A stretch of DNA of 64,000 bases from the NCBI GenBank assembly GCA_036384215.1, contig DASVMX010000143.1, positions 21 through 64,020 on the forward strand, written 5' to 3'. This DNA comes from Ktedonobacteraceae bacterium. GTDB taxonomy: Bacteria > Chloroflexota > Ktedonobacteria > Ktedonobacterales > Ktedonobacteraceae. The number at the start of each line of letters is the position of its first letter. Position 1 is the stretch's first letter. The position numbers were made by a program, and so were the translations under genes. This document shows positions 10,448-43,285 of the stretch, piece by piece. The notes under the pieces were generated by a model that was given only the letters and a program-made list of their open reading frames with translations, did not search any database and had not been told where the DNA came from.

Positions 10448-10708
10448 TCAGGCCAGGGGACCCGACCAGGGATCTTCACGCGGAGAGGCCTGGTCAGTTG
10501 CTTTCTCTGGAGCAAGCCTGGCGCTCACGAGCCGGCTAAATTCACAGAGCGTCGACGCGCTGACCTGCTCGATGACCTCGCTCTCGCTCTGGGTGAGCTG
10601 AAAGCCTTGCTGCTGGATAGCACTCAGCGGATGGAGAAGCAGAGCCTGGCAAAAATCGTCGTCAAGGGTTGCCAGGCCTAAAATCTGGTTGATGGTATCC
10701 CAGGACAT
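10448..10708 (-). CDS. Small helical protein resembling Os1348/LigA-type NHLP-clan RiPP leader proteins (candidate precursor)
   Basis: The sequence MSWDTINQILGLATLDDDFCQALLLHPLSAIQQQGFQLTQSESEVIEQVSASTLCEFSRLV follows the pattern I recall for NHLP-clan / LigA-like leaders (D-x-x-F-x-x-x-L-L-x-x-P, then G-[FL]-x-L-[TS]-x-x-E). It is the last gene of the minus operon, after pmbA. An alternative start lies at 10735. Confidence 0.5.
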   Translation of the reverse strand: MSWDTINQILGLATLDDDFCQALLLHPLSAIQQQGFQLTQSESEVIEQVSASTLCEFSRLVSARLAPEKATDQASPREDPWSGPLA

Positions 10709-10837
10709 GGCTTTTCTTGCTTTCTCTAACCTCAACAGTACACAGCTTTATATCTATCAGTAACGGGCTGCTGCAACCGCGCTCCCGGGAGTTGTGAGCA
10801 CAGGTCGCAGCTTACCCTCGCGACGCACGTTGGCGAC

Positions 10838-12175
10838 TTACCCGACCTGGACGCGGGCGATGAGCAGGCTGGGTGCGCCGGCTCCATCGGCCAGGGGCGA
10901 GAACTGCAAATCGGAGCCACAGGCGCGCACATTCCGCAGCAGCTCGAAGATGTTGGCAGAAATGGGCACACCGCTGACGGGATAACGCGGCTGCCCCTGC
11001 TCAATCCACCAGCCCTGCACAACCAGGGTAAATTTGCCAGTGGTGCCCTGGATACGCCCGGGGCGCAGGACGCTGGTGACGATGATCCCGTGCTGGAGTT
11101 GCTGGCGCAATTCATCCGGCGTGGCGTTGCCAGCCTGAAGATAGACGTTCGAGGGCGCCGCCCGCGGCTGCTGCCAGAGCGATGGTTTCAACGCATTGCC
11201 TCCGGGCGTCGCGTTCAGCAGGTCCGCGCTGCGCAGGGTGTGCAGAAAGGCACGCAGCCGGCCCTGCTCCACCAGGGTGGTCGCACTCACAGGCGTCCCT
11301 TCATCGTCAAACGGGCGACTCTTGAGACCGGTGTGCAAGGCGCCATCGTCGATCAGCGACACCGCGGGCGAGGCAATGGGATGGTCGATGCTTTTGAGCA
11401 ATGGCTTGAGATCCTGGAGCACATTTTCGGCGGTCAGCAGCACGCCGAGGGAGCGCGCGATATCGGCGGCAGCGAGCGGCGGCAGGAGAACCTCGCAGGG
11501 ACCAGCGGGCGCCTGCCTCGAAGGCTCGTGCAAGAACACGAGATGATCGCTCACGTGCTGGCCGAGCGCCTCCAGGTCCAGGCCAGCAAAGCACTGGCTG
11601 GAGGCCGCCGTCGTGAGATGCCCGAACGCTCCCTCGGCCCAGATCCAGATGCGATAGTTGCTCGTCTGGCAAACCGCTCGCAGGCCGCGAGAGTTGACCA
11701 GCCCTGTAAATGAAGTTGACTCCGCGTAACAGGCGTGTACAATCAGCCCGGTCGCCGGCTGCTTGCTGCTGATTGTGGCCATGACCTCCTCGATCATGGC
11801 CCGTTTGCGCGCCTGGGCGAGCAACGGCTCCTGGGCGAGAGCAAATGGCGAGCAACTCCGCTCGCTGTTCAGCCATGCAGGCGAGGAGATGCCGCGCTGG
11901 CGCGCCTCCAGCACCGCCTGGCGAGCAATAGTGGCCAGGCCAGCAGCGGACAAATCATTGGTCGAGAGCAGAGCCAGCCGATCATCACACCACACGCGCA
12001 GCGCCAGCCCGCTCTGCCAGCCGCTGCTCTCGTTGCAGTGGTCTTGCTGGAGGGTGATACGCGTGGCCGGTCCCTGGCGCAGGTAGACATCAGCCTCGTC
12101 GGCGCCAGCATCCAGAGCCATATCCAGCAGTTGCGTGGCTCTCTGTAGAACCTCTGTGACCTCAGACATTGGCAT
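10838..12175 (-). CDS. pmbA: PmbA/TldE-family peptidase U62 subunit (non-catalytic partner)
   Basis: The N-terminus is typical of the family (LDMALDAGADEADVYLRQG..ITLQQ). No HExxxH motif is present. Its ATG overlaps the tldD stop by 1 nt (TAATG). Confidence 0.85.
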   Translation of the reverse strand: MPMSEVTEVLQRATQLLDMALDAGADEADVYLRQGPATRITLQQDHCNESSGWQSGLALRVWCDDRLALLSTNDLSAAGLATIARQAVLEARQRGISSPAWLNSERSCSPFALAQEPLLAQARKRAMIEEVMATISSKQPATGLIVHACYAESTSFTGLVNSRGLRAVCQTSNYRIWIWAEGAFGHLTTAASSQCFAGLDLEALGQHVSDHLVFLHEPSRQAPAGPCEVLLPPLAAADIARSLGVLLTAENVLQDLKPLLKSIDHPIASPAVSLIDDGALHTGLKSRPFDDEGTPVSATTLVEQGRLRAFLHTLRSADLLNATPGGNALKPSLWQQPRAAPSNVYLQAGNATPDELRQQLQHGIIVTSVLRPGRIQGTTGKFTLVVQGWWIEQGQPRYPVSGVPISANIFELLRNVRACGSDLQFSPLADGAGAPSLLIARVQVG

Positions 12176-15417: not shown

Positions 15418-17565
15418 TCAGGAGGCCGTTTTCTCCGGGTAGAGATTCATCAGATAGAATGGTTTGTTGAGCTTCGTGCCCGGAGCCACCAGCGAGCTCT
15501 GTTCCCACGCGGCCACAGCCTCCGGCGTCGGATGTTCCAGGCATGCACGGGCCTGCTCGACGGTACCGAGCAAATCCTCGCAGAGTTCGATGCACAGGCG
15601 CCGTGCTCGCCGCAGGAGATTCCCGGACTCCTCTCCCTCCTGCAACTGATAAGCGCAGAGAGCGCGGGCGAGCAGGGATTCGGGCAGGTGATCGTAATCT
15701 CCAAGCTTTTCGCGCAACTCCACGCTGCGTCCATACCACTGATGAGCCTGGCGAAACTCGGCCAGGCGATAGCACAGGTAGCCGCAGGCTCGGGCGATGA
15801 TCTCGCTGTGAAAGCTATCCTCGCCAGCCACGGCTTGCTCATAGCTTTGCTTATAGCACTCCAGAGCAGGCGCCAGAGCCCCGGCCTTCATGCGCAAGCC
15901 GCCTTCGCGGAACAAATAGTGTTTGGCAAAGATTTCGTTCGCAACGCTCAGGAAGCTGCGAAAAAAGGTCCAGGTGGACAGCGCCTGCTCTAGCCGGCCG
16001 GTATCTTCGAGGAGCACGGAGATATTGGAGACCAAATTGACCTTGAGATGGGTCGCCTCTTTCTGATGCAGGGGCTTCATGAGCGAGAGCGCGTTCTGCA
16101 CCATGGTCATGCCATCGCGGTAGTGTCCCTGCTGGTAATTCATCAGGGCACTGACGTTGAGCAGCCAGCCGTGCTCCAGCACTGCCTCGGGAGTGGACAG
16201 CCCATTGATCGCCTGGAATCCCTGGAGCAGGTATGTTCGCGCCTGCTCGATACGGTGCAGGCGTTTGCCAGTGATCAGGCCCAGGTACATACAGAGCTGG
16301 GCGCGCATCTCCGGCGCGGTCGCCAGCTCCAGGGCCAGTTGATAGCAGCTTGACGCCGCCTCGTGATGTTCAAGAAAAGTCTGGGCCAGCGCAATGGCTT
16401 TCCAGGTCGCGATCAGAATATCGCGCCTCTGGTGGATTTCCGCCACGGAGAATTCGAGTGCGACATAGAGATCATGGGCGGTCAGCGGCTTCCAGATAGC
16501 TTTAAAGCGCTCGACATCAAATTGCTCATCGCTGAGTACACCGAGCAAGACGATAATCTGCCGCCCCAGGAAAAGCACGGTCTCCATGTTGAGGACGAAC
16601 AGGGCCAGGCGCGTAGCCTGAAGCGCATAGGCACATCCCTCTTCGATCTGTCCCTGCGTGAAATGAGACAGGGCCAGTTGGGTTGCCTGCGCTTCATCGC
16701 ATGGTCCTCCAGAGACAGGGTCAACGACAGCAGAAACGGCCGCCATGGTATCAGCATCAGAACCGATGTCTGGCAGCGCGATTTCCTCTCCAAGCAACTG
16801 GCTCCGCACTCGCTCTAACAGCCGGGCATGTTCCCTCCGCCAGTCGAGGAAGCCCGCGATCTCCGCTGGCAGCGAGTGCTCTTCAGCAGAGGTTCCAACA
16901 ACAGCGGACTCGCGCAGCACACCCACCAGCACCAGGGGGATATGGGCCTGATTAATCCAGCGATTGAGCCGGCGGAAGGTCAGCAGAGTCAGGCGGTCGG
17001 CTGCCTGTAGCTCATCCCACCAGAGCACCAGAGGTCCCCGGGCTAGCGTCGGACTGGCCTGACGGGCCTCGATCACAAACTGGCAGAGGCCATTGATCAT
17101 GCGGAAAGCCTGCTCGGACTCGCGGTGAGAGCGGCGCTCGGATGGCGTCAGAGCAATCTGGGAAAGCGAGAGCGCCGGCTGGAAGCCCAGGCGGTCCATC
17201 AGCTGGGGATGGAGCGCGCTCAACTCCGCCGCGTAGCGCTGGATGATCTCCGGCGTCTCCTCGGCCACCAGCGGTAGCAACTGCTCCAGGAGTTGGCGGA
17301 CCGGCCAGAACGAGATCATCCCAGGCTGGAGACAACATACATGCAGCATGGTGCCACCTCGCTCGCTGACGAAGTGGCGATACTCCTGGCGGTGATCCTC
17401 AAGAGCAGCACCCGCACCCTGCGCCACGATCAGCAGGCTGCGAACGGTGGTTGGATCGCAGTCCGCGGCCTGGCGATAGAGGGTCTGGAGGCGCTGCTCT
17501 ATCCGCGCTTCCTGCTGCTGATGTAAAGGCTCCGCCTGGACGACGGGTCTAGAAGTGGAACTCAT
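15418..17565 (-). CDS. STAND-like/TPR repeat protein, paralog 1 (degenerate P-loop)
   Basis: Paralogous to 22038-24344 and 41291-43285. Shared blocks are SERRSHRESEQAFRMING, LVLWWDELQAADRLTLL (Walker-B-like) and HLKVNLVSNISVLLEDTG..FFRSFL. The C-terminal half is TPR-like. QGAGAALED sits where the P-loop should be. The preferred start is ATG 17565 (SD AAGGAG). Confidence 0.75.
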   Translation of the reverse strand: MSSTSRPVVQAEPLHQQQEARIEQRLQTLYRQAADCDPTTVRSLLIVAQGAGAALEDHRQEYRHFVSERGGTMLHVCCLQPGMISFWPVRQLLEQLLPLVAEETPEIIQRYAAELSALHPQLMDRLGFQPALSLSQIALTPSERRSHRESEQAFRMINGLCQFVIEARQASPTLARGPLVLWWDELQAADRLTLLTFRRLNRWINQAHIPLVLVGVLRESAVVGTSAEEHSLPAEIAGFLDWRREHARLLERVRSQLLGEEIALPDIGSDADTMAAVSAVVDPVSGGPCDEAQATQLALSHFTQGQIEEGCAYALQATRLALFVLNMETVLFLGRQIIVLLGVLSDEQFDVERFKAIWKPLTAHDLYVALEFSVAEIHQRRDILIATWKAIALAQTFLEHHEAASSCYQLALELATAPEMRAQLCMYLGLITGKRLHRIEQARTYLLQGFQAINGLSTPEAVLEHGWLLNVSALMNYQQGHYRDGMTMVQNALSLMKPLHQKEATHLKVNLVSNISVLLEDTGRLEQALSTWTFFRSFLSVANEIFAKHYLFREGGLRMKAGALAPALECYKQSYEQAVAGEDSFHSEIIARACGYLCYRLAEFRQAHQWYGRSVELREKLGDYDHLPESLLARALCAYQLQEGEESGNLLRRARRLCIELCEDLLGTVEQARACLEHPTPEAVAAWEQSSLVAPGTKLNKPFYLMNLYPEKTAS

Positions 17566-17854: not shown

Positions 17855-18111
17855 GGGGGAACGGGTTCGCTTGTAGTGTAGCCAGAGAGTTGGCGCCTTG
17901 CCAGAGACACCAGTACGCACCGAAAGAGTATCTTTGTACTCTCACCCATATTGTTTCCGCAAAACTGCGAGCACGACCGGGTGAGCCATCTCGCTGACAA
18001 GTATCATAATACTTCTTGCGCCGGGACATATGTCCCCCTGGCAGTGTATCGATGAACCTAGACAGGAGAAAAGACGCTGGCTACACTACAAGCGGACCCC
18101 TTCCCCTGACC
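17855..18111. repeat. Inverted-repeat-bounded element, copy 1 (arms about 17855-17885 and 18077-18111)
   Basis: The left arm is GGGGGAACGGGTTCGCTTGTAGTGTAGCCAG. The reverse complement of the right arm is GGTCAGGGGAAGGGGTCCGCTTGTAGTGTAGCCAG. The arms are homologous to those at 37831-38178. Confidence 0.6.
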
Positions 18112-18299
18112 ACCCTGCTGGCTTCCTCCTGCCTTCAGGAGGCTGAGAGGGCATGGCAACCCCCGGCTACAACGGGTGCCAGAACCAGCAAGCAAGGCAG
18201 TAGCTTTGCGTTGAGGGAGGGTATGGTAGGGGAAAAGGGATCTTCTATAGGACAATCGTTGTCTTTTGGAATGTCTCTTCATCCTTTTCGGAGGTTTTT

Positions 18300-18734
18300 A
18301 TGGAAAAGCCCGTTACTTCGACGACTCCATCCCATGCTCAGCAAGCGCCAGAGCCTGCCGCGAGCGCCCCTGCGCAGCAGCCGGCACCTGTCGCGCAGTC
18401 TGGCGCTGTCCCGACGGCGCTCGTGGCCCCTGGCGTCGTGCCCGCAACCGGGGAGCAGAGCACCGCAGCGGCTGCACAGCCCACTGCGACGCCCACGACT
18501 CCTGCTACACCTGCCGCGGGACAGACGGCTCCGGCGCCCGCGACGCAGGCTCCCGCCGCGCCCGCCGCGCCCGCCGCGCCTGGCACTCCCGCTGCGGGAC
18601 AGGGCAGCCCGGGAAACCCCGCGCCCGCGGCACAGGAGCAGGTTGTCTTCGATGAACTGGAAGAGATTGAGTTTCTCCTGGATGAGATTGAGGACCAGAT
18701 TGCTCCGCTCGCGCTCCAGGCTCCCCTGCGGTGA
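18300..18734 (+). CDS. Pro/Ala/Thr-rich small protein with acidic C-terminal helix (candidate scaffold/precursor peptide)
   Basis: GGAGG lies 5 nt upstream of the ATG. It is the first gene of the plus operon. Codon usage looks natural in this frame, whereas the overlapping frames are Arg-rich. The C-terminus is QEQVVFDELEEIEFLLDEIEDQIAPLALQAPLR. Confidence 0.6.
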   Translation: MEKPVTSTTPSHAQQAPEPAASAPAQQPAPVAQSGAVPTALVAPGVVPATGEQSTAAAAQPTATPTTPATPAAGQTAPAPATQAPAAPAAPAAPGTPAAGQGSPGNPAPAAQEQVVFDELEEIEFLLDEIEDQIAPLALQAPLR

Positions 18735-18903
18735 GCTGACCCCTGCTGGCCTGGCCCCCCCGGAGCTGGTCTCGTCGCCCGGGGCTGCTCTGTGGGTAAG
18801 GCGAGCAGGCCAGGGCACCAGAACCAAAGAGCGTGGTGCCACTCGCGCTGTCCCGGCCCGTTCCAATGCCGGGGCGGGCTGGTCTCCCGCCTCCGCGCCT
18901 CTA

Positions 18904-18936
18904 CCGATCATCCGGGCGCGGGAAACGGATGATCGG
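18904..18936 (+). other. Stem-loop between the candidate precursor gene and the flavin reductase gene
   Basis: CCGATCATCC, a 13-nt loop, then GGATGATCGG. No U-tract follows, so it is not a classical terminator. It could act as an attenuator or processing site. Confidence 0.3.
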
Positions 18937-18962
18937 GAAAATCACGAAAGGAAAAGTATTCG

Positions 18963-19517
18963 ATGCATCTAGTGCAAAACCAATCCACTCCACCGCAGCA
19001 ATTGCCTCTCTACCGCTATTTTGCCAGCACAGTGGCGCTAATCACCTCGCAAAGCGAGGGCCAGCAGCGGAACGTTATGGCCTGCGAGTGGACGATGAAC
19101 GTCTGCCGGCATCCCCTGAAGATTATGACGCTGATCAATAAGGACGACCTGACCCACGAGCTGATTATGGCCAGCGGTGAGTTCGGGGTAAATCTGTGTT
19201 CGGAGGAACAGAGTTCCCTTTCGCACTTTGCCGGCAGCAACACCGGACGCGAGGAAGATAAGCTCCACAATACGATCTTTAACGGCCTGCTATATACCGC
19301 GACGCGCATCCAGGCTCCGATGATTCGGGGGTGTGTGCTCAATGCCGAGTGTGTGGTCGAGCAGGCCATCGACATGGGCAAGCACACGGCCTTTATCGGG
19401 CGGGCTCTGGCCGCCCGGCTTAATCCCAACCTGCGCCCTTTGCTGTACCACCAGGGCTGCTATCTGCGCTGTGGCGAGGTGATTCCCAAGCCCGAACACT
19501 CCGCGCAGGAGGTCTGA
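18963..19517 (+). CDS. Flavin reductase-like FMN-binding domain protein
   Basis: The sequence follows the PF01613-like pattern: FASTVALITSQSEGQQRNVMACEWTMNVCRHPLKIMTLI..GEFGVNLCSEEQSSLSHFAG..DKL..HTAFIGRAL. Confidence 0.8.
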   Translation: MHLVQNQSTPPQQLPLYRYFASTVALITSQSEGQQRNVMACEWTMNVCRHPLKIMTLINKDDLTHELIMASGEFGVNLCSEEQSSLSHFAGSNTGREEDKLHNTIFNGLLYTATRIQAPMIRGCVLNAECVVEQAIDMGKHTAFIGRALAARLNPNLRPLLYHQGCYLRCGEVIPKPEHSAQEV

Positions 19518-32479: not shown

Positions 32480-34978
32480 TTATCCCTCCTCGCTTTCCGC
32501 CAGGGAAAAGGGCCAGCCATTGCCAGGCGCGCTGCTCAAAACGGTTCGCAGTTCGCAGCAATAACGTCCGGTGGCCTTGTCGCCAAGCCAGAGGTGCTCG
32601 GGATCGGGCCACATTTCCACGAAGGTGATGGTCTCCGTCTGACCGACCAGGTGGGCCAGCAGTTCCAGGGCAAAGTAGTTGTGGAAGTCGATATAGATGG
32701 GTTTTGGTTCTGTAGGCATGGAGATAAAGACGTGGTCGGGCAGGCCCAGGCGCTGCTGAAATTCCAGCATGTCGATGAAAAGCTGGAACGACGTTCCCTG
32801 GGCGTGTCCACCGGGAATGGCGGAGGACGGTACCTCCCAGCGCTCCCGCTGATAGACCACGCCCTGGATCTCGATGCGAGGCGTGTGCTCTCCCAGGCGT
32901 ACGGGCACCTGGCGCACCAGGGGATAGGAGAAACAGGCGAACGGCGCGTAGAGCGGCTCAGGCACGGAGTAGGACGGCGGATAGAAGCAGAGGGCGCGCG
33001 GATCGCCGGGCCGGCGCAGCAGTAATTCTTCGCCCTGGCGCTCAACCACGAGCTGGCTCAACTCGGGCTGGCCAGGCCGGGTGGAGACGGATGATACCTG
33101 CAGGCTCTGGCCGGCAAACTCGGGTGGGGCTGTCTTCATATGCCTGCCAAAGAGAAGATTCGTCGGCATGAGGGCGTCGGTCGGGGCAGGCAGACAGCGG
33201 GCAATCTCGCTCTCCCAGGCTCCGGGATTATCGACAAAGGTCAGCATCCAACCGACTGGCTGCACGCCATGGTGGATCTCGCCGAGTACGACCTGGTAGC
33301 GGCCCTGATCCACCGCCTCACCATCAGAGGCCGCCAGGAGAACGTCGGGCGAGAGGACCACTGGCTGCGCAAGGGGCTGGCAGAGGGGAGCCAGGTCCGC
33401 CGCCGAGAGAGCGCAGGTGTGTGCTGTGCTGCGCCAGGCCACCAGGTCGGCAAAGCGCTGCTGGAGTTGCTCCGCGGCAGGTGAAGGGGCTGGCTCGGAA
33501 TAGCGCCGCCTCCAGGCCGAGAGAAAACGAATAAAAGGGATGGAACGGCCATCCGCGCTGCATTCGTCGAAGAGCCTGTTCGCCCGGGCGTGCAGATCGG
33601 CGAGCGCGAGCTGACTATAAGTCGCGCCGAGTGCGGCAATCGGCGTGAGGGCCTCGCTCATCTTCTGGTGATGCTGCTCGCTCAGCCGCAACTCCACGAG
33701 ATTGCCCAGACACTCCTCGTATAGAAGGATGCGGTCCTGGAACATCTTGCCCTGGCCACGGCGCGCTTCGCTCTCCGTCAGCTCGGTATAACGCGCCTCC
33801 AGGTCCGCCAGGATGGCCTGGCGCTGCGAGAGATCGGCCTCGGAGAAGCGCTGGCAGGAGTGCTGGAACCAGGTCAGAATGACCAGCCAGCGCCGCTGAG
33901 CCTCACAATCGGCTGGCAGGGTCCCAAGTTGCTGGATCAGATAGTCCAGGGGATCGAGAATGGCGGCAGGGATCGGCAGATCGAGGCGTAGATAGCCTGC
34001 GGCCACCAGGCGCTCCACCGCCGCGAGTGTCTCCGCGAGCGACAGACCCAGGAGGCCGGCCAGTTCCACGACCCTGCGACTCCCATCGCAGAGCGCGTAC
34101 AGATCCTGGTCCTCGACCGGGCGCGGGCGCAGAAAGACGTGCCCTGGACACAGGTAGGGGCGCAACTCGGGCTCTCTGGCAACGCTCCTGGCCAGCTCGA
34201 CGATGGCCCAGTAGGCAAAGAACACGTGGCGCTGGCGGATACGATCCGCAGATCGGCACGAGCGAAAACCCGTTTCGCCCTCAAAGACGCCATAGTTGAG
34301 CGGCCCGAAGAAGCTGGTGGTGTCATTTTTCGCGCAGAAACGCTGTAAATAGGTATAGAAGCGCCGTTCGAGATGCTTGATCTTGAACGGGCGATGGTGC
34401 GGGTCCCAGTGGCGGCGATAGTAATGCCATCCGACCTCGTAGATTGAGGGATTGGAGAGCCAGAGAGCTTCCTGAGTACTCGCGGCTCCAACCAGATCGT
34501 AGAGGGTCCGGCGTCGTTCCTCGAGCTCGCCCTGAAAGGTCCTTTCGCCCTCCTCCTGGAGCTGGCTCAATTCCAGGCAGGTACTTTGCCAGCCGACCAG
34601 CCAGTCAGCGAGCAATGGCCGGCCATGGTCCTCGCGCACGGCGGCGATTACGGCCGGATCAGGCGGCTGGCCGCGCCGGATAGTGCGCGCCAGTTTGTAC
34701 CAGAAGCGAAAGGCCTCTTTGTCCCGCCCGGCCTCCGTCTCTTCCGCGCACAGAGTCGGAAAGAGCTCTTCCTCAAAGCGCTGCTGGAGTTGCTTCTGGT
34801 GGGCCTGAGTGTGGAGAAATTGCCGGGCGATGACGACGCTGGCGGAGAAGCGCAGCGAGGTCAACCAGTCAAAGGGAAAACCGGTGCCACGCAGCACAAA
34901 ATACTTCATCAGATGCCAGGAATGCGCCCGCTCTCCACTATCCTGAGTTGCTTGCAGATCGATCAAATGCTGGTTCAT
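32480..34978 (-). CDS. LanB N-terminal domain-only protein, small LanB / PEARL-like, paralog 4
   Basis: Motifs are FVLRGTGFPFDWL, STQEALWLSNPSIY, HLERRFYTYLQRFCAKNDTTSFFGPLNYG, MFQDRILLYEECLG, HTPRIEIQGVVYQRERWEV and KPIYIDFHNYF. Confidence 0.8.
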   Translation of the reverse strand: MNQHLIDLQATQDSGERAHSWHLMKYFVLRGTGFPFDWLTSLRFSASVVIARQFLHTQAHQKQLQQRFEEELFPTLCAEETEAGRDKEAFRFWYKLARTIRRGQPPDPAVIAAVREDHGRPLLADWLVGWQSTCLELSQLQEEGERTFQGELEERRRTLYDLVGAASTQEALWLSNPSIYEVGWHYYRRHWDPHHRPFKIKHLERRFYTYLQRFCAKNDTTSFFGPLNYGVFEGETGFRSCRSADRIRQRHVFFAYWAIVELARSVAREPELRPYLCPGHVFLRPRPVEDQDLYALCDGSRRVVELAGLLGLSLAETLAAVERLVAAGYLRLDLPIPAAILDPLDYLIQQLGTLPADCEAQRRWLVILTWFQHSCQRFSEADLSQRQAILADLEARYTELTESEARRGQGKMFQDRILLYEECLGNLVELRLSEQHHQKMSEALTPIAALGATYSQLALADLHARANRLFDECSADGRSIPFIRFLSAWRRRYSEPAPSPAAEQLQQRFADLVAWRSTAHTCALSAADLAPLCQPLAQPVVLSPDVLLAASDGEAVDQGRYQVVLGEIHHGVQPVGWMLTFVDNPGAWESEIARCLPAPTDALMPTNLLFGRHMKTAPPEFAGQSLQVSSVSTRPGQPELSQLVVERQGEELLLRRPGDPRALCFYPPSYSVPEPLYAPFACFSYPLVRQVPVRLGEHTPRIEIQGVVYQRERWEVPSSAIPGGHAQGTSFQLFIDMLEFQQRLGLPDHVFISMPTEPKPIYIDFHNYFALELLAHLVGQTETITFVEMWPDPEHLWLGDKATGRYCCELRTVLSSAPGNGWPFSLAESEEG

Positions 34979-35039: not shown

Positions 35040-37508
35040 CTATTGATAGACCATGGTCATTCTCCACTCACAGCTATGGGTCCCCCCGACCTTTTTCAGC
35101 CACCATTGATCTGCCTCCGGCAGGCATTCTGTTAGCTCAAGCGTCGCGTTATCGCGGATCATGGTAAAGAGGAGTTCCAGGCTAAACAGGCTGGCGAAAT
35201 CCACGTAGAAGGGCTTTCGCTCCGAGGGGACACGGGCAAAACACCGCTCGGGTAGGCCATGGCGCTGCCGGAATGCGCTGGCGTGCAGCATGAGTTCGCT
35301 GCCGCTCATCTGCGCGTGTGGTGGCGTCAGTTCGTCGGTCGCGAGCTTCCAATGCGCCCGTTGCATAACAACGTCCTGGATCGTGCAGCGCGGCGTGTAT
35401 GTCCCGAGGCTGATTACTGGCGGGATGACCGGGGGCGTGCCGAAAATCCAGTTGGAGACGCTGCGTGGATCGCCCGGATAGAGATCAATGATCTCGTTCA
35501 GAGAGCGGGAGTGCAGAGCCAGCCCGTCGTCGGTCAGGACAACGTCCAGATCCATAGCCGGCAGAACCTGGTCGCGCTCTTTGACCGAGCGCCCCAGCAT
35601 CTCGATGCTCATGCCTGGCAGTTCCAGGTAGAAAGTCTTGCCCTGCTGGCGGCGGTGAACCAGCGCGGCGCGCATGGGAGTTCCACCCGGCTGTACCAGG
35701 CATGTGGCGAGGGCACTGGCTAGTTCGTCCTGCCTGGGACTGAAGGTCAGGAAATGGCACCAGACCTGCGCCCCATAGTGTATCTCGCCCACCACCAGCT
35801 GGTAGTCGCCAGCCCTGATCGCAGCCACGTCGTGTGCCGCCAGGAAAAGATCGGGGGAGACCATCGTGCCAGGCTGGATGGGCTGCATGTACGGCCGCAG
35901 GTCGCTCGCGCTCAAGCGAATGTGCTCTCCTTGCTGGCGCTCGCGGGCCAGCCCGGCCAGCCCCTGTAGAAAGTCCTGCACAGTCGTATCTGCCACGCAC
36001 TCTTCCAGGCGCACCTGCCGCTCCAGTTGATAGACAAAGGCCAGGTATGGCTGTGGTTCACCCCCACCCATGGCCAGGAAGACCTCGCGGGCCCGCTTCA
36101 TACACACTCGCTGCAAAACCACGCTATAGCTGGCACAGAGATCAAGAGCAGGCCGCAGACTCGCCAGCAGACGATCATGCAGGGCTCGACCAATCGTGCA
36201 GTCTGCGATATCGCCGTGAGCCTCGTCATAGATTAGCAAACGGTCGGCGTATGTTTCTCCTTCGCTCCGCCGCGCCGGTTTTTTTGCCAACCCGCTGAAG
36301 TCACTCTCGAGCCGCTCAAGGAGCGCAAGCTTCTCTTCTATCGGCGCGGCGGCGAAGGTGGTGATGCCCTGGTGGAACTGATCCAGGCGCTGGAGCCAGG
36401 CGGCGCGAGCCTCACACGTGCCTGGCAGTTGAGCCACGCGAGCGCGCAGCCACTCCAGCGGATTGAAGACGGCAGTGGGAATCTCAATACGCAGCACAAT
36501 CAGCCCTCGCGCACAGGCAGAGTGCAGCATTGGCCATTGCTCGCCTCCAAGCGCCTGCCAGAGATCGCTGATGCTGCGCTGGCCGTCGATGGCACCCAGC
36601 AACGCGGCCAGTTCCCGGGGGAGGCGTACGGTCTGCCCATGGGTGACCACAGAGAGTTCGCCAGAGGGCAGCAGCGTGCAGCCGCTCTGGAGCCTGGGCA
36701 CCAGGTACGGCTGCACGCTCTGGTCCCCGGCGATGACATCGGCCAGTGCCTGGGTGGCCCAGTAGGTCATGCGGGTAAGCCGTTGAGCCAGGCGCCCATC
36801 CGGCACCCGGGTCAGCGCCAGCGGCTCAGACGCGGCTGGATCATAGCGTCCATAGTCAATGGGACCAAAGAAGCTTGTGGTGTCGTTCTTGGCGCAGAAG
36901 CGCTGCAAATAGGTATAGAGGCGGCGTTCCAGGTGCCGAACCTTCGCCGGGCGCTGATATGCCGCATAATGGTGCAGGTATGAGGGCAGGGCAACGGAAT
37001 ACATATTGGGGGTGGAGAGCAGCAACGCCTCCTGGAAGAGCTGATCCCGGGCAATCTCGTGCAGGCGCTCCCGGGTGGAGCGGAGTTCGCTGGCAAAGGC
37101 CTGCTCAAATTCCTCCTGGCTCGCAGCCAGAGCCTCCAGGGCGGTGTTCCAGCCCTCGATCCAGGCACCTATGGCGGGACAGCGCCCTACCAGGAAGCTT
37201 TTCAATTCGGGTGGGCAGACTTTGCGTTTATAAACACAACGATTGAGCTGATACCAGCGCTCAAATGTGGGGGAATCTGCACACCTCTCCTGCTCCTGAT
37301 CCAGGATGCCGGGAAAGACCTGCTCGTTGAACGAGCGGTGCAATCGGTCAAGCTGCGTGCCGAATTCCAGCACACGCAGGCTCCGTGCCTGGCTCAGCGG
37401 CATGCGAAGTTCGTCGAGTTGTTCAAAAGGGAAACCAGTACTCCTGAGTAAAAAGCAGGGGAGCAGCGTCCAGGGATTGCGCGCCTGGTCGGGGTTTTGA
37501 GAGATCAT
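35040..37508 (-). CDS. LanB N-terminal domain-only protein, small LanB / PEARL-like, paralog 5
   Basis: Motifs are FLLRSTGFPFEQL, QLFQEALLLSTPNMY, HLERRLYTYLQRFCAKNDTTSFFGPIDYG, TYADRLLIYDEAHG, YTPRCTIQDVVMQRAHWKL and KPFYVDFASLF. I chose ATG 37508 (SD GAGGAA) by alignment with the paralogs. The track start is 37592. Confidence 0.8.
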   Translation of the reverse strand: MISQNPDQARNPWTLLPCFLLRSTGFPFEQLDELRMPLSQARSLRVLEFGTQLDRLHRSFNEQVFPGILDQEQERCADSPTFERWYQLNRCVYKRKVCPPELKSFLVGRCPAIGAWIEGWNTALEALAASQEEFEQAFASELRSTRERLHEIARDQLFQEALLLSTPNMYSVALPSYLHHYAAYQRPAKVRHLERRLYTYLQRFCAKNDTTSFFGPIDYGRYDPAASEPLALTRVPDGRLAQRLTRMTYWATQALADVIAGDQSVQPYLVPRLQSGCTLLPSGELSVVTHGQTVRLPRELAALLGAIDGQRSISDLWQALGGEQWPMLHSACARGLIVLRIEIPTAVFNPLEWLRARVAQLPGTCEARAAWLQRLDQFHQGITTFAAAPIEEKLALLERLESDFSGLAKKPARRSEGETYADRLLIYDEAHGDIADCTIGRALHDRLLASLRPALDLCASYSVVLQRVCMKRAREVFLAMGGGEPQPYLAFVYQLERQVRLEECVADTTVQDFLQGLAGLARERQQGEHIRLSASDLRPYMQPIQPGTMVSPDLFLAAHDVAAIRAGDYQLVVGEIHYGAQVWCHFLTFSPRQDELASALATCLVQPGGTPMRAALVHRRQQGKTFYLELPGMSIEMLGRSVKERDQVLPAMDLDVVLTDDGLALHSRSLNEIIDLYPGDPRSVSNWIFGTPPVIPPVISLGTYTPRCTIQDVVMQRAHWKLATDELTPPHAQMSGSELMLHASAFRQRHGLPERCFARVPSERKPFYVDFASLFSLELLFTMIRDNATLELTECLPEADQWWLKKVGGTHSCEWRMTMVYQ

Positions 37509-37830: not shown

Positions 37831-38178
37831 GGTCAGGGGAACGGGTCCGCATGAAGTGTAGCGGGGGCAAGAGACGCTGTACAGGTTCACCAGTACGCTC
37901 CCTGGTAAGGACTGAGATCCAGGCCCGGGAGTATTAGCGTACACTGCTTCTCTTCTTTTTCCTCCCGAGCACTACGCGATAAACTCTTGCACGAAGGGTC
38001 GCAGTTCGTCCAGATCGCGAGCATTGGGAAACCGAGGGATCAATTCCTGCACGGCAGCCTGCTCTCGAAGTACCCCAATAATCTTTCTCGACAGGACACA
38101 TGTACCTCCGGCTGTGTACTGGCAAACCTGTACAGCGTCTCTCGCCCCCGCTACACTCCTTGCGGACCCATTCTCCCG
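37831..38178. repeat. Inverted-repeat-bounded element, copy 2 (arms about 37831-37896 and 38116-38178)
   Basis: The left arm is GGTCAGGGGAACGGGTCCGCATGAAGTGTAGCGGGGGCAAGAGACGCTGTACAGGTTCACCAGTAC. The reverse complement of the right arm is GGGAGAATGGGTCCGCAAGGAGTGTAGCGGGGGCGAGAGACGCTGTACAGGTTTGCCAGTAC. The arms are homologous to copy 1. Confidence 0.65.
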
Positions 38179-38281: not shown

Positions 38282-39874
38282 ATGGAAAACACTCAGGCTA
38301 CGCTTTTGCGTATTGCTGTGGCAGGCTGGCCCCTGACCCTGGCACCACAGAAGTCTTCACTCACCAATGAATTGCCGGTTTTGACGCTGAACTACGAGGG
38401 TCTGACGCGTATCGATAAAGACCTCCGCACGGTCCCGGCTGCGGCGGAGAGATGGCAGTATAACAGCGATTCGACCAGCATATCGTTCACCCTGCGCTCC
38501 GGGCTGACCTACAGCGACGGATCTCCGCTTCGGGCACGCGACTTCGTCCAGGCCGTCTACCGCGTGCTCGATCCGCGCAGTCCGGGGAACTATCAAACCC
38601 TGCTCGCAATGATCGCCGGGGCAGAGGCCATCATCGACGCCGGGCCAGAGGTGGACGAGGCGCGACTGCGCGATCTGTGCGGACAACTGGCGGTCTCGGC
38701 CCCGGACGACCGCACCATCGACTTCGCGTTGACCCGGCCTACACCTTATTTTCACACCCTGGCCAGCACCTGGGTGCTGTATCCGGCGAAACAGGAGCGC
38801 ATCGACAGAGGCGGAGCGCGCTGGGGCGCAGACGCGGCCAATCATCTCGGCAACGGACCCTTCCAGATGACGACCATCGATCCGCGGGCCAATCTGATCG
38901 CGTTCAAGGCCAATGAGTATTACTGGCATGGCCGCCCCAAACTGGATGGCGTGCACCTGCTATACATTGATGACAAAGCCGCGGCCTTCCAGAGCTATTT
39001 GCGGGGCGAGGTGGATATCCTGGCGCCCGATCCACGCGATGTTCCACGCATCAAGGCCGACGCAACACTCAGCCAGGAATTCAAGGAATATCCCGGAGCC
39101 TGTACGATGGTCCTCGAATTCGCTCTGGTGAAGGCTCCGTTCAACAACAAGCTGGTGCGCGAGGCATTTACCTATGCCTTTGACCGCGGCTCGTATATTC
39201 GCGATGTCCTTCACGAGACCGAGGTCAAGACCCTGACCTGGATTCCCCCTGGCTATCCAGGCCACGATCCCTGCGAGAGGCGCTATGACTTCGATCCGGT
39301 GCAGGCACGCCATTGCCTGACAGCGGCTGGCTTTCCGGGCGGACAGGGTCTGCCGGAGATCCGCTTCTCCTACAGCCAGAATCCCATCAACCAGGCGCGG
39401 GTCGATTACATCATCCAGATGTATCAGCGGATTCTTGGGGTTGCCATCACGCCCAATCCAGTAAGCGACGCTGGCCTGGCGGAGATGAGAAGGTCAGTCG
39501 AGACCTTTCCGCAGATAGTAATCGGTGGCGGCTGGTGCGCCGACTATCCCGATCCGCAAAACTGGCTGAGCGTCTACTGGCACTCGCGCACCAACATCGC
39601 CCGCAGCGTTGGCTATAAAAACGAGGAGGCCGACCGGCTGATGGACCTGGCTGATGTCGAGACCGAGCCAGAGAAGCGCATCGAGTTGTACAGGCAGGCA
39701 CAGGAACTGATCGTGGGCGACGTGGCCCAACTGGCCCACGGCCACACCAAAAACGGCTACCTGATCAAGCCCTGGATCAAAGGCCTGGACCTGACCGCGC
39801 AGGACTGGGTATTTCCAGGGCAGGTCACCAGCCTGCTCACGACGGTTATCGAGAAGGAACCACCAGGGCGGTAA
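38282..39874 (+). CDS. Family-5 (peptide/nickel type) solute-binding-protein homolog lacking a signal peptide
   Basis: The SBP_bac_5 pattern is LRIAVAGWPLTL..LNYEGLTRIDKDL..PAAAERWQYNSD..ISFTLRSGLTYSDGSPLRARDF. An in-frame stop at 38252-38254 leaves no room for a signal or lipobox extension. No ABC permease or ATPase genes lie nearby. Confidence 0.85.
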   Translation: MENTQATLLRIAVAGWPLTLAPQKSSLTNELPVLTLNYEGLTRIDKDLRTVPAAAERWQYNSDSTSISFTLRSGLTYSDGSPLRARDFVQAVYRVLDPRSPGNYQTLLAMIAGAEAIIDAGPEVDEARLRDLCGQLAVSAPDDRTIDFALTRPTPYFHTLASTWVLYPAKQERIDRGGARWGADAANHLGNGPFQMTTIDPRANLIAFKANEYYWHGRPKLDGVHLLYIDDKAAAFQSYLRGEVDILAPDPRDVPRIKADATLSQEFKEYPGACTMVLEFALVKAPFNNKLVREAFTYAFDRGSYIRDVLHETEVKTLTWIPPGYPGHDPCERRYDFDPVQARHCLTAAGFPGGQGLPEIRFSYSQNPINQARVDYIIQMYQRILGVAITPNPVSDAGLAEMRRSVETFPQIVIGGGWCADYPDPQNWLSVYWHSRTNIARSVGYKNEEADRLMDLADVETEPEKRIELYRQAQELIVGDVAQLAHGHTKNGYLIKPWIKGLDLTAQDWVFPGQVTSLLTTVIEKEPPGR

Positions 39875-39955
39875 CGCCTGGTACGAGAGCCAATCATCCG
39901 CTGTTATGAGAAGATCTCTCGCGCAAGCGACAGCAGGAGAGAAAGCAGAAAGACG

Positions 39956-41191
39956 ATGATGAAAATCACCCTGTTTCGATCACTGACACAACGTTCGTTT
40001 GCCTTCCTCTGGAGCGGGCAGGCCATTTCAGCGCTGGGAGATAGCCTCTACCGCGTGGCCCTGGCCTGGTGGGTGCTGGAGAAAACCGGCTCCGCGACAA
40101 TTATGGGCATTGTGCTGATCTTCTCCTTCATCCCGATGCTCCTGTTCCTGCTCATCGGGGGCGTGGCCGTAGACCGCTTTTCTCGTCTACAGGTGATGCT
40201 AATCTCGGACACCCTGCGCGGGGTGATCGTGCTGACCATGGCGTTGCTCGGCTTTGCTCAGCACCTGGAGGTCTGGCATGTCTATATCGCCAGTGTGCTC
40301 TTTGGCCTGGTCGATGCGTTTTTCCAGCCCGCGTACGCGGCGGTCATTCCAGAGATTATGCCCCAGGATCTGCTGCCCAGCGCTAATTCGCTCACGGTGC
40401 TGAGTCGACAGACCTTCAGCGTCGTAGGTCCAGCTCTGGGGGCGCTCATCATCGCTTTGGGCAACACATCAGCCGCGTTTGTCTGCGATGGCCTGACCTT
40501 TGTCTTCTCCGCCTGCTGCCTGCTGATGATCCGCCAGATACCCGCGCCGGACGCTCGCGGTAAATCCGAGGCTCCCGGACGTGAGCCAGGGATTATCGCC
40601 GATCTACGCGAAGGCATCGGCACGGTGATAGCCTCGCCGTGGATCTGGATCACGATTGTGGTCTCTGCCCTGGCGAATATTACGCAATCCGCCCCTTTCA
40701 GTGTCTCGCTGCCATTTCTCGTCACCAGAACCTGGCACGCCAATGTCCAGGTCCTGGGAACGCTCTACTCGGTCTATTTCCTGGGCTCGGTGCTTGGGGC
40801 AATCTGGCTCGGCCACGCGAAGAAATTACGGCGGCGTGGCCCGCTGGCCTACTTTTTCGTGATCCTCAGCGGGCTGATGACGCTCTCCCTCGGCCTGCCG
40901 CTCCCGGTAGGCGGGATGTTTGTGACGGCACTCATTCGCGGGCTCTCGTTTACCGCGTTCGAGCTCGTCTGGGTGAATACGCTACAGGAGCTTGTGCCCG
41001 GCAAATTGCTGGGGCGCGTGGCCAGCATCGATTATCTCGGCTCATTTGCCCTGCTGCCGCTTGGCTACGCCATCGCCGGGCGGGTCACCGACCTCGTCGG
41101 CCCGCCAGCGGTATTTTTGATCGGCGGCCTCATCACGATTAGCGTCGCTATGCTCGGGATCACCCACCCGGTTGTCAGGCGCGTGGATTGA
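39956..41191 (+). CDS. MFS transporter (EntS/MFS_3-like exporter)
   Basis: About 12 hydrophobic helices are visible. The N-terminus is typical of the family (FAFLWSGQAISALGDSLYRVALAWWVL..GGVAVDRFSR). Confidence 0.85.
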   Translation: MMKITLFRSLTQRSFAFLWSGQAISALGDSLYRVALAWWVLEKTGSATIMGIVLIFSFIPMLLFLLIGGVAVDRFSRLQVMLISDTLRGVIVLTMALLGFAQHLEVWHVYIASVLFGLVDAFFQPAYAAVIPEIMPQDLLPSANSLTVLSRQTFSVVGPALGALIIALGNTSAAFVCDGLTFVFSACCLLMIRQIPAPDARGKSEAPGREPGIIADLREGIGTVIASPWIWITIVVSALANITQSAPFSVSLPFLVTRTWHANVQVLGTLYSVYFLGSVLGAIWLGHAKKLRRRGPLAYFFVILSGLMTLSLGLPLPVGGMFVTALIRGLSFTAFELVWVNTLQELVPGKLLGRVASIDYLGSFALLPLGYAIAGRVTDLVGPPAVFLIGGLITISVAMLGITHPVVRRVD

Positions 41192-41290
41192 CGTGCCTGC
41201 GCAGCCAGACAGGCGCTCCGGGGCAACGATTAGAACCCAGGCACAACAGGCATGAGATGGGCGATTACAGACCGAAAGGGAACCATAGCA

Positions 41291-43285
41291 ATGGAGAACA
41301 ACACGTTTGAACTTATGACAAGCAACCGAAAGGGTCTTGCCCAGAAAGAGCGAGATGAGCGTCTCCAGGCCGGCGCGTTGCCGCACGCCTGGCTCCAGCC
41401 CTTCGCGGCCCTGGAGACAGCGGCGGCAGCGGAGCCGCTGATCTGGCTGCATGCTCCTCACGAGCTGACCGCCGAGCTTCTGCCCCTGCTCCGGGCGCAT
41501 CTGGACGCCGGGCACAACCGTTGTTTCCTCGCGGGATATCCCACCGCCGAGCACTCCTCCTTCGCCCCACTTCGTCCCCTGCTGCGCCAACTCCTGCCGC
41601 TGGTCAAGGATGGCGTCGCGGAGATCCTGTACGCGTGCGCTCCAGAGCTGGTAGCGCTGCTCCCCGACCTGGCCTCATCGCTGCTTACGGAGACTTCCGA
41701 GCTCGCCACGCTGGTGCACATGCCCCTCCACTCCGACCGCACCCTGCCGCTCGATTCCGACTACGTCTACCGTATTGCGATGCGCGCCGGCTGGTTTCTC
41801 GAAAACGCGGGCCGGCACTACACTGCAGCCTCCCAGCGCCGGCCCGTCTTCGTCTTCCCCTGTGTCGAAAAGTTCGACCGGCCAACCCTGCAAACGCTCT
41901 ATCACCTCTGCTGGCGAGCGCGCACTGGAGCATTCCGGCTAGTGATCATCAGCGCCTGTGCCCCGGACACCGGACCCATCGACGAGTCACTCGGACTCTT
42001 TGACCTCCAGCACGTACAGCAGACCTTCCTCTCAAAGCTCTATGAAAGACTAAAGCCAGCACTCGTGCGTCTGCCTGCCACAGTTCCCAACCAGCCATCC
42101 CTGGCACCTCTGCCCGCTGGCGATGACAGCGAGGCCTGCGCGTACCGATTGGCTGTCACAGCCTTGGGTACGGCTCCGCTGGAGGAGGCACAGCTGGCAT
42201 TTTTCCATGCCGTCGAGGTGAGTACGCAATATCTGAACGCGCAGCCAGTGTTGAGCCTGGCCGCGGAGGCGCTGGCGCGAGAAGATCTGGAGATCGACGG
42301 CGAGTTCGTGGCGTCCATCTGGCACACGGCGGGCATGGCTCACGCCTCGCATGGCGACTATACGCGGGCAACCGACTGCTTTCGCCGGGGCTTCGCTCGC
42401 ACACACCAGCCAGTGATGCGCGCCCGCCTGGCCATGTTCCTCTCCCTCGTCCTGGCTAAACGCATGGGCCAGTTCGAGGAGGCCGAACACTTCCTGGCCA
42501 CAGGCTATAGCGCGATCGAAAGCGCCGAGACCCCAGAAGCGACCCTGGAGCATGGCTGGCTGAACAATGTGAAGGCCCTGATCGCCTACCGCAATCGCGA
42601 CTATGGCCAGGCGCTACGCCTGACGCAGAGCGCGCTGGAGTTTATGAAACCCTATCGCACCCCTGCCAGCATCAGCCTGAACACCAACCTCGTGGCCAAT
42701 GCCAGTGTGGTCTTCGAGACCACGGGAAAATGCGAGCGGGCGCTGGGCATCTGGGGCATCTTCCGCACTTTCCTGGATGAGGCCGGGGATGTCTTTGGCA
42801 AATATTACTATCTCCGCGAGGCAGGCCTCCAGCTCAAAGCAGGCCTGATCGCAGAGGCGACCAGGGGGTATCAACAGGCCTTCGCTATGGCCAAACGCGT
42901 TGGCGACCTCGTGACCATGGAGGCCGCGGCCCGCGCCAGCAGCCAGATCGCGGGCCGCGCCGGCGACTATGCCAGCGCGCTGACCTGGGCCGAACGCCTC
43001 CCCGCGCTGCTTGAGCAGATCGGCGATCAGCAGCAACTGTACCAGAGCTGGCTCGCCATCGCCGCCTGCCACGCCCTGCAGACCCACCCGCGAGAGGCAG
43101 AAGCCGCCCTGTGCAACGCCCGGCTCCTCCTGGAACGCGACAACCGGCTCCAGGAATGCCCGGACCTCCTGGACGCGCTCACCCGGCTCCAGGCTGGCCA
43201 GGCCGACGCGATTGACTGGCAGCGCTGGCTCCCGGCCCTCCCCCACACCATGCTTCGCGGCCCCTCGCACCTGTTCCAGCCATGA
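41291..43285 (+). CDS. STAND-like/TPR repeat protein, paralog 3 (most degenerate NTPase region)
   Basis: Shares RPVFVFPCVEKFDRPTLQTLYHLCWRA and SLNTNLVANASVVFETTG..IFRTFL..YYYLREAGLQLKAG with paralogs 1 and 2. The C-terminal half is TPR-like. The preferred start is ATG 41291; the track start is 41252. Confidence 0.7.
   Translation: MENNTFELMTSNRKGLAQKERDERLQAGALPHAWLQPFAALETAAAAEPLIWLHAPHELTAELLPLLRAHLDAGHNRCFLAGYPTAEHSSFAPLRPLLRQLLPLVKDGVAEILYACAPELVALLPDLASSLLTETSELATLVHMPLHSDRTLPLDSDYVYRIAMRAGWFLENAGRHYTAASQRRPVFVFPCVEKFDRPTLQTLYHLCWRARTGAFRLVIISACAPDTGPIDESLGLFDLQHVQQTFLSKLYERLKPALVRLPATVPNQPSLAPLPAGDDSEACAYRLAVTALGTAPLEEAQLAFFHAVEVSTQYLNAQPVLSLAAEALAREDLEIDGEFVASIWHTAGMAHASHGDYTRATDCFRRGFARTHQPVMRARLAMFLSLVLAKRMGQFEEAEHFLATGYSAIESAETPEATLEHGWLNNVKALIAYRNRDYGQALRLTQSALEFMKPYRTPASISLNTNLVANASVVFETTGKCERALGIWGIFRTFLDEAGDVFGKYYYLREAGLQLKAGLIAEATRGYQQAFAMAKRVGDLVTMEAAARASSQIAGRAGDYASALTWAERLPALLEQIGDQQQLYQSWLAIAACHALQTHPREAEAALCNARLLLERDNRLQECPDLLDALTRLQAGQADAIDWQRWLPALPHTMLRGPSHLFQP

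Follow-up and report, generated by a model that had tools for sequence, protein, structure and literature searches.

A probable amm/lym/bha-type gene cluster with five diverged PEARL-like paralogs in a Ktedonobacteraceae genome

The 64-kb stretch of contig DASVMX010000143.1 analysed here (the window) comes from a metagenome-assembled genome (MAG) of a Ktedonobacteraceae bacterium (Chloroflexota) and contains an island, from about 10.8 to 44.6 kb, that is a biosynthetic gene cluster. Five genes of this island encode small LanB-type proteins that are best taken to be peptide aminoacyl-tRNA ligases (PEARLs), and we consider, with a probability of roughly 85%, that the island belongs to the amm/lym/bha family of clusters ('pearlin', pyrroloiminoquinone-type), with steps that can be drawn by analogy with amm and bha. 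The preliminary description of this sequence had recognized its architecture from no described pathway; the architecture is nevertheless of the amm/lym/bha type, with an AmmA/BhaA-type scaffold peptide, C1-family flavoenzymes, a ThiO-like oxidase, a TldD/E pair, and a methyltransferase. The parts list and the family assignments are demonstrated below, and the pathway steps are inferred by analogy.

PEARLs draw on aminoacyl-tRNA, without the ribosome, both to form peptide bonds and to transfer amino groups; eight tRNA specificities have been found so far, and each new PEARL enlarges this set. The present cluster adds five diverged PEARLs, along with three hydroxylases of the BhaC1 type, from Chloroflexota, a phylum for which the literature searched makes no mention of this pathway, as well as a defined scaffold peptide, so that every step is directly testable by co-expression and mass spectrometry. 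What is known of the PEARL enzyme class as such is left unchanged by the cluster.

Five small LanB-type paralogs with PEARL-type residues

The five paralogs (822-832 aa), termed B1 to B5, are listed here with their scores for the Pfam domain PF04738 (Lant_dehydr_N) and their closest relatives; L numbers denote loci fetched for comparison, and C genes are those of the BhaC1/AmmC1 family.

19568-22057, + strand: PEARL B1; 78.3 bits; signature residues present, with Lys for the non-essential Glu566
24401-26881, + strand: PEARL B2; 57.7 bits; signature residues intact; best relative the third PEARL of L001 (36%)
29989-32475, - strand: PEARL B3; 85.1 bits; signature residues intact
32480-34978, - strand: PEARL B4; 87.9 bits; 54% identical to its ortholog in L001, which comes second among the PEARLs that follow the C gene
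35040-37508, - strand: PEARL B5; 73.7 bits; orthologs in L001 (55%), L081 (48%), L041 (41%), and L002 (38%)

The preliminary description had placed five genes with a LanB N-terminal domain at these positions, and all of them lie inside open reading frames (ORFs) there, only their starts being ambiguous, by 13-28 codons. The domain scan that it had proposed as a check bears this out: PF04738 is matched by all five proteins with 57.7-87.9 bits (cutoff 28), and neither SpaB_C nor LanC is matched by any of them, even at E ≤ 1. The shared motifs that had been quoted are real and form invariant columns of the five-paralog alignment (RSTGFP, QEA..LS.P, YLQR..KN.T.SFFGP..YG, ADR, HTPR...QR..W, and KP...D). 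B2 to B5 are each 30-32% identical to B1, and the paralogs are closer to orthologs in other clusters (B1 at 52% to L080, B4 at 54% and B5 at 55% to L001) than to each other, so they are old and functionally distinct duplicates, as had been supposed. Their surroundings are also conserved: orthologs of B1 (51-52%) lie directly upstream of a DAO-family oxidase gene in L080 and L081, B4 matches the PEARL adjoining BhaC1 in Halalkalibacterium halodurans better than the other window proteins do, and the B5 type is the PEARL directly after the C1-like gene in many clusters, including a Salinispora lym-type locus.

PF04738 alone cannot separate PEARLs from LanB glutamylation enzymes, and the distinction has to be sought in the ATP site. 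In TglB this site is lined by Asp542, Arg803, Glu801, and a conserved His; Asp542 and Arg803 are reported to be PEARL-specific, split LanBs having Tyr and Leu there, and Glu564 is reported to be non-essential (PMC11117183). The equivalents in BhaB-Trp are Asp558, Glu575, Arg715, Phe755, Glu813, and Arg815, with Tyr205 and Arg208 binding the CCA end of the tRNA (PMC11962472). The five paralogs and nine PEARLs of related loci, one of them from bha, conserve Asp544, His568, Arg710, an aromatic residue about 40 positions further on, Glu806-x-Arg808, and Y-L-Q-R, a motif that is invariant in the window PEARLs and holds the Tyr and Arg that bind the tRNA 3'-CCA (Tyr205 and Arg208 in BhaB-Trp numbering). 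When matched by motif, these residues show the same spacing as Asp542/Glu564/His/Glu801/Arg803 of TglB and Asp558/Arg715/Phe755/Glu813/Arg815 of BhaB-Trp. The PEARLs examined have Glu566-x-His568, with Lys566 in B1 and its orthologs.

We accept the PEARL reading because the ATP-site residues are of the PEARL type at the TglB spacing and because the core of the scaffold peptide, described below, contains no Ser, Thr, or Cys. The PEARL chemistry that had been proposed from the small size of the proteins and the lack of elimination and cyclase genes is thus supported by PEARL-specific ATP-site residues in all five, and small LanB-type enzymes that work without an eliminase are the best reading of these sequences.

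As an alternative, the five proteins could be glutamylation enzymes of the split-LanB kind, from a lanthipeptide or thiopeptide pathway with its eliminase and cyclase encoded elsewhere, which would account for the PF04738 domain, which LanB glutamylation domains share, and for the structural matches. Among solved structures, a profile of the five PEARLs ranks the split-LanB glutamylation enzyme TbtB (6EC7) first, followed by GodF, although a single-sequence search of the PDB with one paralog gave no match. Foldseek with an AlphaFold2 model of B1 (pLDDT 58, low confidence) places TbtB, GodF, MibB, MadB, and NisB first, which points weakly in the same direction. TbtB and GodF share the fold family of the window PEARLs and are their best solved-structure matches; these two enzymes, however, have an elimination partner, act on Ser/Thr, and work without ATP, whereas the window lacks both the partner and the substrate residues and has the ATP-site Asp and Arg in place of the Tyr and Leu reported for split LanBs. 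Pfam scans covered 45 ORFs over the 64 kb, comprising all presumed genes and several overlapping alternatives, and gave no match to an elimination domain (SpaB_C), LanC, YcaO, or pyridine synthase, in agreement with the preliminary description; the called genes tile the island and leave no space for a hidden gene of the size of an eliminase, LanC, or YcaO. The homologous clusters contain no eliminase either, in the loci whose called genes were read, and the only recognizable peptide is an Amm/Lym-type scaffold. Neither the eliminase and LanC (or YcaO and pyridine synthase) nor the Ser/Thr/Cys substrate residues of a class I lanthipeptide or thiopeptide pathway were thus found in the scanned ORFs and the conserved part of the scaffold, respectively, and we regard this alternative as extremely improbable.

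A different objection is that not all of the five are active enzymes, some being relics or partners without a catalytic role, in which case fewer than five steps would depend on aminoacyl-tRNA. In tests of the seven bha PEARLs, no mass shift could be detected for several of them, according to the published passage on BhaB4, and Lys replaces Glu566 in B1. All five proteins, however, keep the other catalytic and CCA-binding residues without exception; the Glu at the Lys site of B1 is reported to be non-essential in TglB (PMC11117183), and the Lys is conserved among the B1 orthologs, which favours selection over decay. Decayed or non-catalytic paralogs are therefore unlikely here. The B1 orthogroup, in which Lys stands where other PEARLs have the ATP-site Glu (Glu564 of TglB), always lies beside a glycine-oxidase gene; judging from these sequences, the Lys could possibly mark a PEARL type that acts on a quinone rather than on a C-terminal carboxylate.

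An internal winged-helix segment, at residues ~259-335 of each PEARL (20342-20572 in B1), gives weak matches to PqqD and to the PbtF-RRE and ApyI types of RiPP recognition elements (RREs; RiPP, peptide synthesized by the ribosome and modified post-translationally). Foldseek also picked up the RRE fold for this part of the low-confidence B1 model, and the segment is probably a scaffold-binding domain.

An AmmA/LymA/BhaA-type scaffold peptide

The preliminary description did not name the gene of the scaffold peptide.

18300-18734, + strand: scaffold (carrier) peptide of the AmmA/LymA/BhaA family, 144 aa; NF033737; GGAGG Shine-Dalgarno sequence 5 nt before the ATG

Residues 118-139 of the peptide match the NCBIfam model NF033737 (Amm_Lyn_leader, 'ammosamide/lymphostin RiPP family protein') with 37 bits (cutoff 30), the part that passes being ...VVFDELEEIEFLLDEIEDQIAPLALQAPLR. 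A low-complexity N-terminal part rich in Ala, Pro, Thr, and Gln is followed by an acidic helix and by the C-terminus ...VVFDELEEIEFLLDEIEDQIAPLAL-QAPLR, a stretch that may also be written ...LDEIEDQIAPLAL-QAPLR. Compared by eye, the core matches BhaA (...LEEIEDKVAPLAL) and AmmA* (...LDEVESKIAPLALA), whose sequences were taken from the supplementary information (SI) of PMC9850906; the three peptides have the motif (L/V)E/D-E-(I/V)-E-x-x-(I/V)-APLAL in common. No Ser, Thr, or Cys occurs in the conserved core, so there is nothing in it to dehydrate.

Over EIEFLLDEIEDQIAPLAL the scaffold is identical to the peptides of L080 and L081, which end ...APLAL. Because these peptides stop exactly where BhaA ends, QAPLR is an added tail, unique to this scaffold among its closest relatives. 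Such extensions are probably removed, according to the legend of the published alignment (PMC9850906 SI).

The low-complexity N-terminal part is unusually long (~115 aa). A 318-aa ORF at 18016-18972 was rejected as a gene, its product being an out-of-frame Arg/Pro/Ser filler, with the scaffold encoded in another frame.

With a degenerate DNA pattern for the scaffold motif, which did not return Bacillus halodurans or the ammosamide producer, the motif was found in 74 species genomes, including those of Streptomyces, Salinispora, Kitasatospora, Actinomadura, Myxococcus and relatives, Paenibacillus, Brevibacillus, and Pseudovibrio, as well as one Ktedonobacterales MAG and one Dormiibacterota MAG. 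The scaffolds of these genomes (L004-L077, 74 loci) terminate in ...APLALA, ...APLAL, ...APLA, or ...APLG, or in an extension, often with Trp in it. A C-terminal extension with Trp is encoded by many of the scaffolds from Streptomyces, Kitasatospora, and Salinispora, e.g. ...APLALASNEAIQWRR and ...APLALAATEPSRW, which raises the question whether a Trp-adding PEARL is needed in those clusters at all.

Three proteins of the BhaC1/AmmC1 family

The three TPR proteins of the island, Ca, Cb, and Cc, are paralogs of each other, as seen in their alignment.

15418-17565, - strand: Ca, BhaC1/AmmC1-family TPR flavoprotein; 144 bits with BhaC1 (BLASTP), the two being 24% identical across 634 aa
21996-24344, + strand: Cb, BhaC1/AmmC1-family TPR protein with an insertion of ~100 aa; assigned from the three-paralog alignment; 133 bits to BhaC1 (BLASTP)
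41252-43285, + strand: Cc, BhaC1/AmmC1-family TPR protein, the most divergent, with a degenerate RESEQ motif; 81.6 bits to BhaC1

The FMN enzymes BhaC1 and AmmC1, which contain a TPR domain, introduce three hydroxyl groups into a C-terminal Trp (PMC9850906). Their sequences were rebuilt from the machine-read supplementary alignment of that paper; as queries, the rebuilt BhaC1 led to the H. halodurans locus and the rebuilt AmmC1 returned no locus. The family motifs of the C proteins are PSxRRxxRESEQxFR, ERxWLxNxxAL, and TKLNxPFxLxNxY, which appear in Ca as PSERRSHRESEQAFR, EHGWLLNVSAL, and TKLNKPFYLMNLY, and IALPSSERRLSRESEQVFR of Cb matches the published BhaC1-family alignment. A profile search retrieved proteins of Saccharothrix sp. 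NRRL B-16314 and Actinoplanes flavus at about E 1e-129, both of which are members of that alignment. Ca, which is 100% identical to the Ktedonobacteraceae MAG protein P0001, is the probable ortholog of the C-terminal-Trp trihydroxylase, judged from sequence. Cc has a 40% ortholog in L080.

Accessory enzymes of the cluster

Five further genes supply enzyme classes found in amm or bha or a partner for the hydroxylases.

10838-12175, - strand: PmbA/TldE-type partner subunit; PF19289, 190 bits; 47% ortholog in L001
12175-13530, - strand: TldD-type metalloprotease subunit; PmbA_TldD domains; PRK10735, 226 bits; 54% ortholog in L001
13754-15247, - strand: SAM-dependent methyltransferase (O-methyltransferase family 2 type); winged-helix 'dimerisation' domains in tandem; PF08100 and PF00891
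18963-19517, + strand: flavin reductase; PF01613, 117.8 bits
26875-28011 (start approximate; listed ORF from 26719), + strand: ThiO-like FAD glycine oxidase (Amm14/BhaG role); PF01266, 223 bits

The TldD/E pair occurs in the bha locus as well and corresponds to Amm12/13 of amm (PMC12424672). L002, L080, and L081 likewise have this flavin reductase gene, placed between that of the peptide and the C1-like or PEARL genes, and the enzyme is a probable source of reduced flavin for the BhaC1-like hydroxylase(s). The ThiO-like oxidase (DAO) scores 243 bits with TIGR02352, just below the cutoff of 250.8, and its orthologs (54-55%) follow the B1-type PEARL in L080 and L081; it is likened to Amm14 and BhaG by enzyme class, not by sequence comparison with them. 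In the methyltransferase ORF, the first 176 codons, which precede the Met at 15247, read as out-of-frame filler and were rejected as coding sequence.

The neighbour list of the preliminary description was largely right: the TldD/PmbA proteins, the O-methyltransferase, the flavin reductase, the ThiO-like oxidase, the three TPR proteins, an SBP_bac_5 protein, two MFS transporters, and a radical-SAM-like protein of ~690 aa without CxxxCxxC are all present. Only its view of the TPR proteins as inert scaffolds does not hold, since they belong to the BhaC1/AmmC1 family.

Related loci and described systems

The core of the cluster recurs in related loci. L001, a contig from an ENA metagenome, reads peptide-C-PEARL-PEARL-PEARL-TldD-TldE, with orthologs of Ca, B5, B4, and TldD at 50-55% and of TldE at 47%. 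The Actinoplanes flavus locus reads peptide-flavin reductase-C-PEARL (three)-TldD-TldE-PEARL, with a DAO gene nearby. In the soil contigs L080 and L081 the order is peptide-flavin reductase-PEARL (the B1 ortholog)-DAO, followed by a relative of the radical-SAM-like protein, and L080 also has SBP-MFS-C-MFS, in which C is the Cc ortholog. The core common to the related loci is thus peptide-(flavin reductase)-C-PEARLs-TldD-TldE, together with PEARL-DAO.

Of the described systems, amm (Streptomyces sp. CNR-698) and lym (Salinispora) share with the window an AmmA-type acidic scaffold with ...IAPLAL, several PEARLs, and an AmmC1-type TPR flavoprotein. By enzyme class, amm additionally shares a glycine-oxidase-like FAD enzyme (Amm14), the TldD/E pair (Amm12/13), and a methyltransferase (Amm23); the amm and bha gene sets are those described in PMC12424672 and PMC11117183. 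In contrast to amm, which has four PEARLs, the window has five, with three C paralogs, in a Chloroflexota host; amm has a halogenase, a dipeptidase, Amm20, and an Amm17-type reductase, none of which was found here, whereas the window has the additional cysteine-less radical-SAM-like protein and SBP homolog, and a scaffold that ends in QAPLR without the terminal Ala.

The bha cluster of Halalkalibacterium (Bacillus) halodurans C-125 also resembles the window in its scaffold, which ends ...APLAL (the QAPLR tail being ignored), in its many PEARLs and several C paralogs, and in the BhaG glycine oxidase, the TldD/E pair, and an MFS_3 pump. It comprises seven PEARLs (BhaB1-B7) and four C paralogs (BhaC1-C4), so the number of paralogs in the window is not unusual. 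The PEARLs of bha are only 21-29% identical to those of the window, and its C proteins about 25%; the PF01613 flavin reductase of the window contrasts with an NADPH:FMN quinone reductase (BhaH) in bha, and the 17 kb of bha that were read contain no homolog of the radical-SAM-like protein or of SBP, both of which are in the window. The TglB/3-thiaglutamate pathway of Pseudomonas syringae is alike in its PEARL class and in the spacing of the ATP-site residues, but the window differs from it in lacking TglHI-type partners, in its scaffold family, and in a chemistry that is likely based on Trp rather than Cys.

Proposed pathway

By analogy with amm and bha, the ribosome would produce the scaffold peptide (18300-18734), from which trimming of the five-residue QAPLR tail would expose ...IAPLAL, the end point of BhaA and of the closest relatives. 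The PEARLs would then use ATP to phosphorylate the carboxylate at the C-terminus and attach amino acids donated by aminoacyl-tRNA, Ala probably being added first, as by BhaB1 on BhaA, and Trp second. Ca together with the flavin reductase would convert the indole to a hydroxyquinone (o-hydroxy-p-quinone), and a further PEARL would place Gly from Gly-tRNA onto the quinone; we suggest B1 for this step, as a guess, because its adjacency to the oxidase (DAO) gene is conserved. The ThiO-like oxidase could remove glyoxylate and leave an amino group, and a second nitrogen and/or a handle residue at the C-terminus may come from the other PEARLs, in the manner of AmmB1, BhaB4, and AmmB4. Finally, the TldD/PmbA pair would cleave the modified Trp (or a dipeptide) from the scaffold, which would be reused, the methyltransferase would tailor the released compound, and the MFS pumps would export it.

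Several points weigh against this assignment. The individual PEARLs were assigned to steps from synteny alone, the AlphaFold2 model of the PEARL is poor (pLDDT 58), and the window residues were matched to those of TglB by motif and spacing, not by direct alignment. The scaffold ends in QAPLR instead of the conserved Ala, and the protease that would trim this tail is only presumed. No counterpart of the halogenase Amm3, the dipeptidase Amm19, Amm20, or the Amm17/BhaH-type quinone reductase was found in the scanned ORFs of the window, so the product is not ammosamide, and the end product may be other than a pyrroloiminoquinone. No product is known for the bha cluster, which is comparably rich in PEARLs.

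Some of these points would suit a pathway in which the same enzyme families carry out a different chemistry, leading to a Trp-derived (or other) pearlin without a pyrroloiminoquinone, with the extra BhaC1 paralogs, the radical-SAM-like protein, and some of the PEARLs performing steps unseen in amm and bha. The lack of the halogenase, the Amm19-type dipeptidase, Amm20, and the Amm17/BhaH-type reductase would fit such a pathway, as would the conserved genes that this subclade has for itself, namely the radical-SAM-like protein and the SBP-MFS-Cc-MFS module, and the B1 orthogroup with Lys in place of Glu566. Nor does bha provide a product for comparison, and the literature searched assigns no function to BhaC2-C4. 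On the other hand, every part that defines the early steps of amm and bha occurs here in intact form, namely the scaffold, a C1-like protein, the PEARLs, the glycine oxidase, and TldD/E, and the first half of the pathway is most simply the same. We hold a divergent chemistry to be possible, though the less favoured view. More specifically, and just as tentatively, the subclade could make a Trp-derived pearlin whose structure and late steps set it apart from all described pyrroloiminoquinones, new on-scaffold chemistry could be performed or chaperoned by the two additional BhaC1 paralogs and the conserved cysteine-less radical-SAM-derived protein, and at least one PEARL might use an unreported aminoacyl-tRNA or acceptor site. 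The amm/bha-like route remains our preferred reading of the cluster.

A radical-SAM-derived protein without the cluster motif

28008-30083, + strand: radical-SAM-derived protein, 691 aa, without CxxxCxxC and with a C-terminal winged-helix (RRE-like) part; weak match to TIGR03975 (radical-SAM methylase)

Its AlphaFold2 model (pLDDT 75) gives the best Foldseek matches to TsrM (6WTE), MgmA, and HydE. A profile search retrieved 1,186 relatives, and the distant ones keep SRGCYWxxCxFC; in the subfamily of the window protein this motif is replaced by LTLDExExLPGE, and just two Cys are invariant. The CxxxCxxC motif for the [4Fe-4S] cluster that marks class B (cobalamin-type) radical SAM enzymes is absent from the protein, although the predicted fold is still TsrM-like, and the protein is, from its sequence and model, a radical-SAM descendant without the cluster ligands. 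A search of 5.8 billion proteins gave only 5 close homologs, of which the two with contigs that were read (L080 and L081) lie in related PEARL clusters; as far as these homologs tell, the protein is specific to this subclade.

Transport module and promoter motif

38282-39874, + strand: SBP_bac_5 family protein without an obvious signal peptide (N-terminus read); Pfam, 234.6 bits; 59% ortholog at the same position in L080
39956-41191, + strand: MFS_1/MFS_3 transporter (Pfam); 63% ortholog in L080; an MFS_3 pump is also present in bha
43397-44572, - strand: second MFS transporter (Pfam); 38% ortholog in L080

With Cc, these genes form an SBP_bac_5-MFS-C-MFS module (38282-43285, + strand, and 43397-44572, - strand) that is conserved as a block in L080, where the Cc ortholog lies within it, and was not seen in the readable amm-, bha-, or Actinoplanes-type loci. 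The MFS_1/MFS_3 transporter probably serves export.

A motif of ~27 nt, GGGGAAnGGGTyCGCwwGnAGTGTAGC, occurs in 4 copies in the 64 kb, where shuffled sequences lead one to expect none. All copies lie in the two divergent promoter regions of the cluster, as inverted pairs with arms of 61-68 nt that are 165-219 nt apart.

17856-18106 (17856-17882, + strand, and 18080-18106, - strand): inverted motif pair 1, in the divergent promoter region of the Ca and scaffold-peptide operons
37836-38169 (37836-37862, + strand, and 38143-38169, - strand): inverted motif pair 2, in the divergent promoter region of the B5-B4-B3 and SBP operons

None of the 81 fetched loci contains this motif, which may be an operator for a regulator of the cluster or, alternatively, the ends of a small mobile element.

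Borders and flanks of the island

The island is bordered by a large BTAD/TPR (SARP/AfsR-like) regulator (6940-10368, + strand) on one side and by a LuxR-type response regulator (44630-45313, - strand) and a sigma-70 factor (45566-46567, - strand) on the other, and these three may control it. The flanks consist of housekeeping genes: a two-component system, VWA, GreA, a MoxR/DUF58/transglutaminase set, an amidase, and Pth. The peptidyl-tRNA hydrolase gene (62812-63504, + strand) and a tRNA-Gly(GCC) gene (63566-63638, + strand) lie about 18 kb from the cluster and are most likely housekeeping genes unconnected to it. The G+C content is 59-64% across the cluster (about 10000-46000), against 53-59% in the flanking housekeeping DNA, a contrast consistent with horizontal acquisition of the island.

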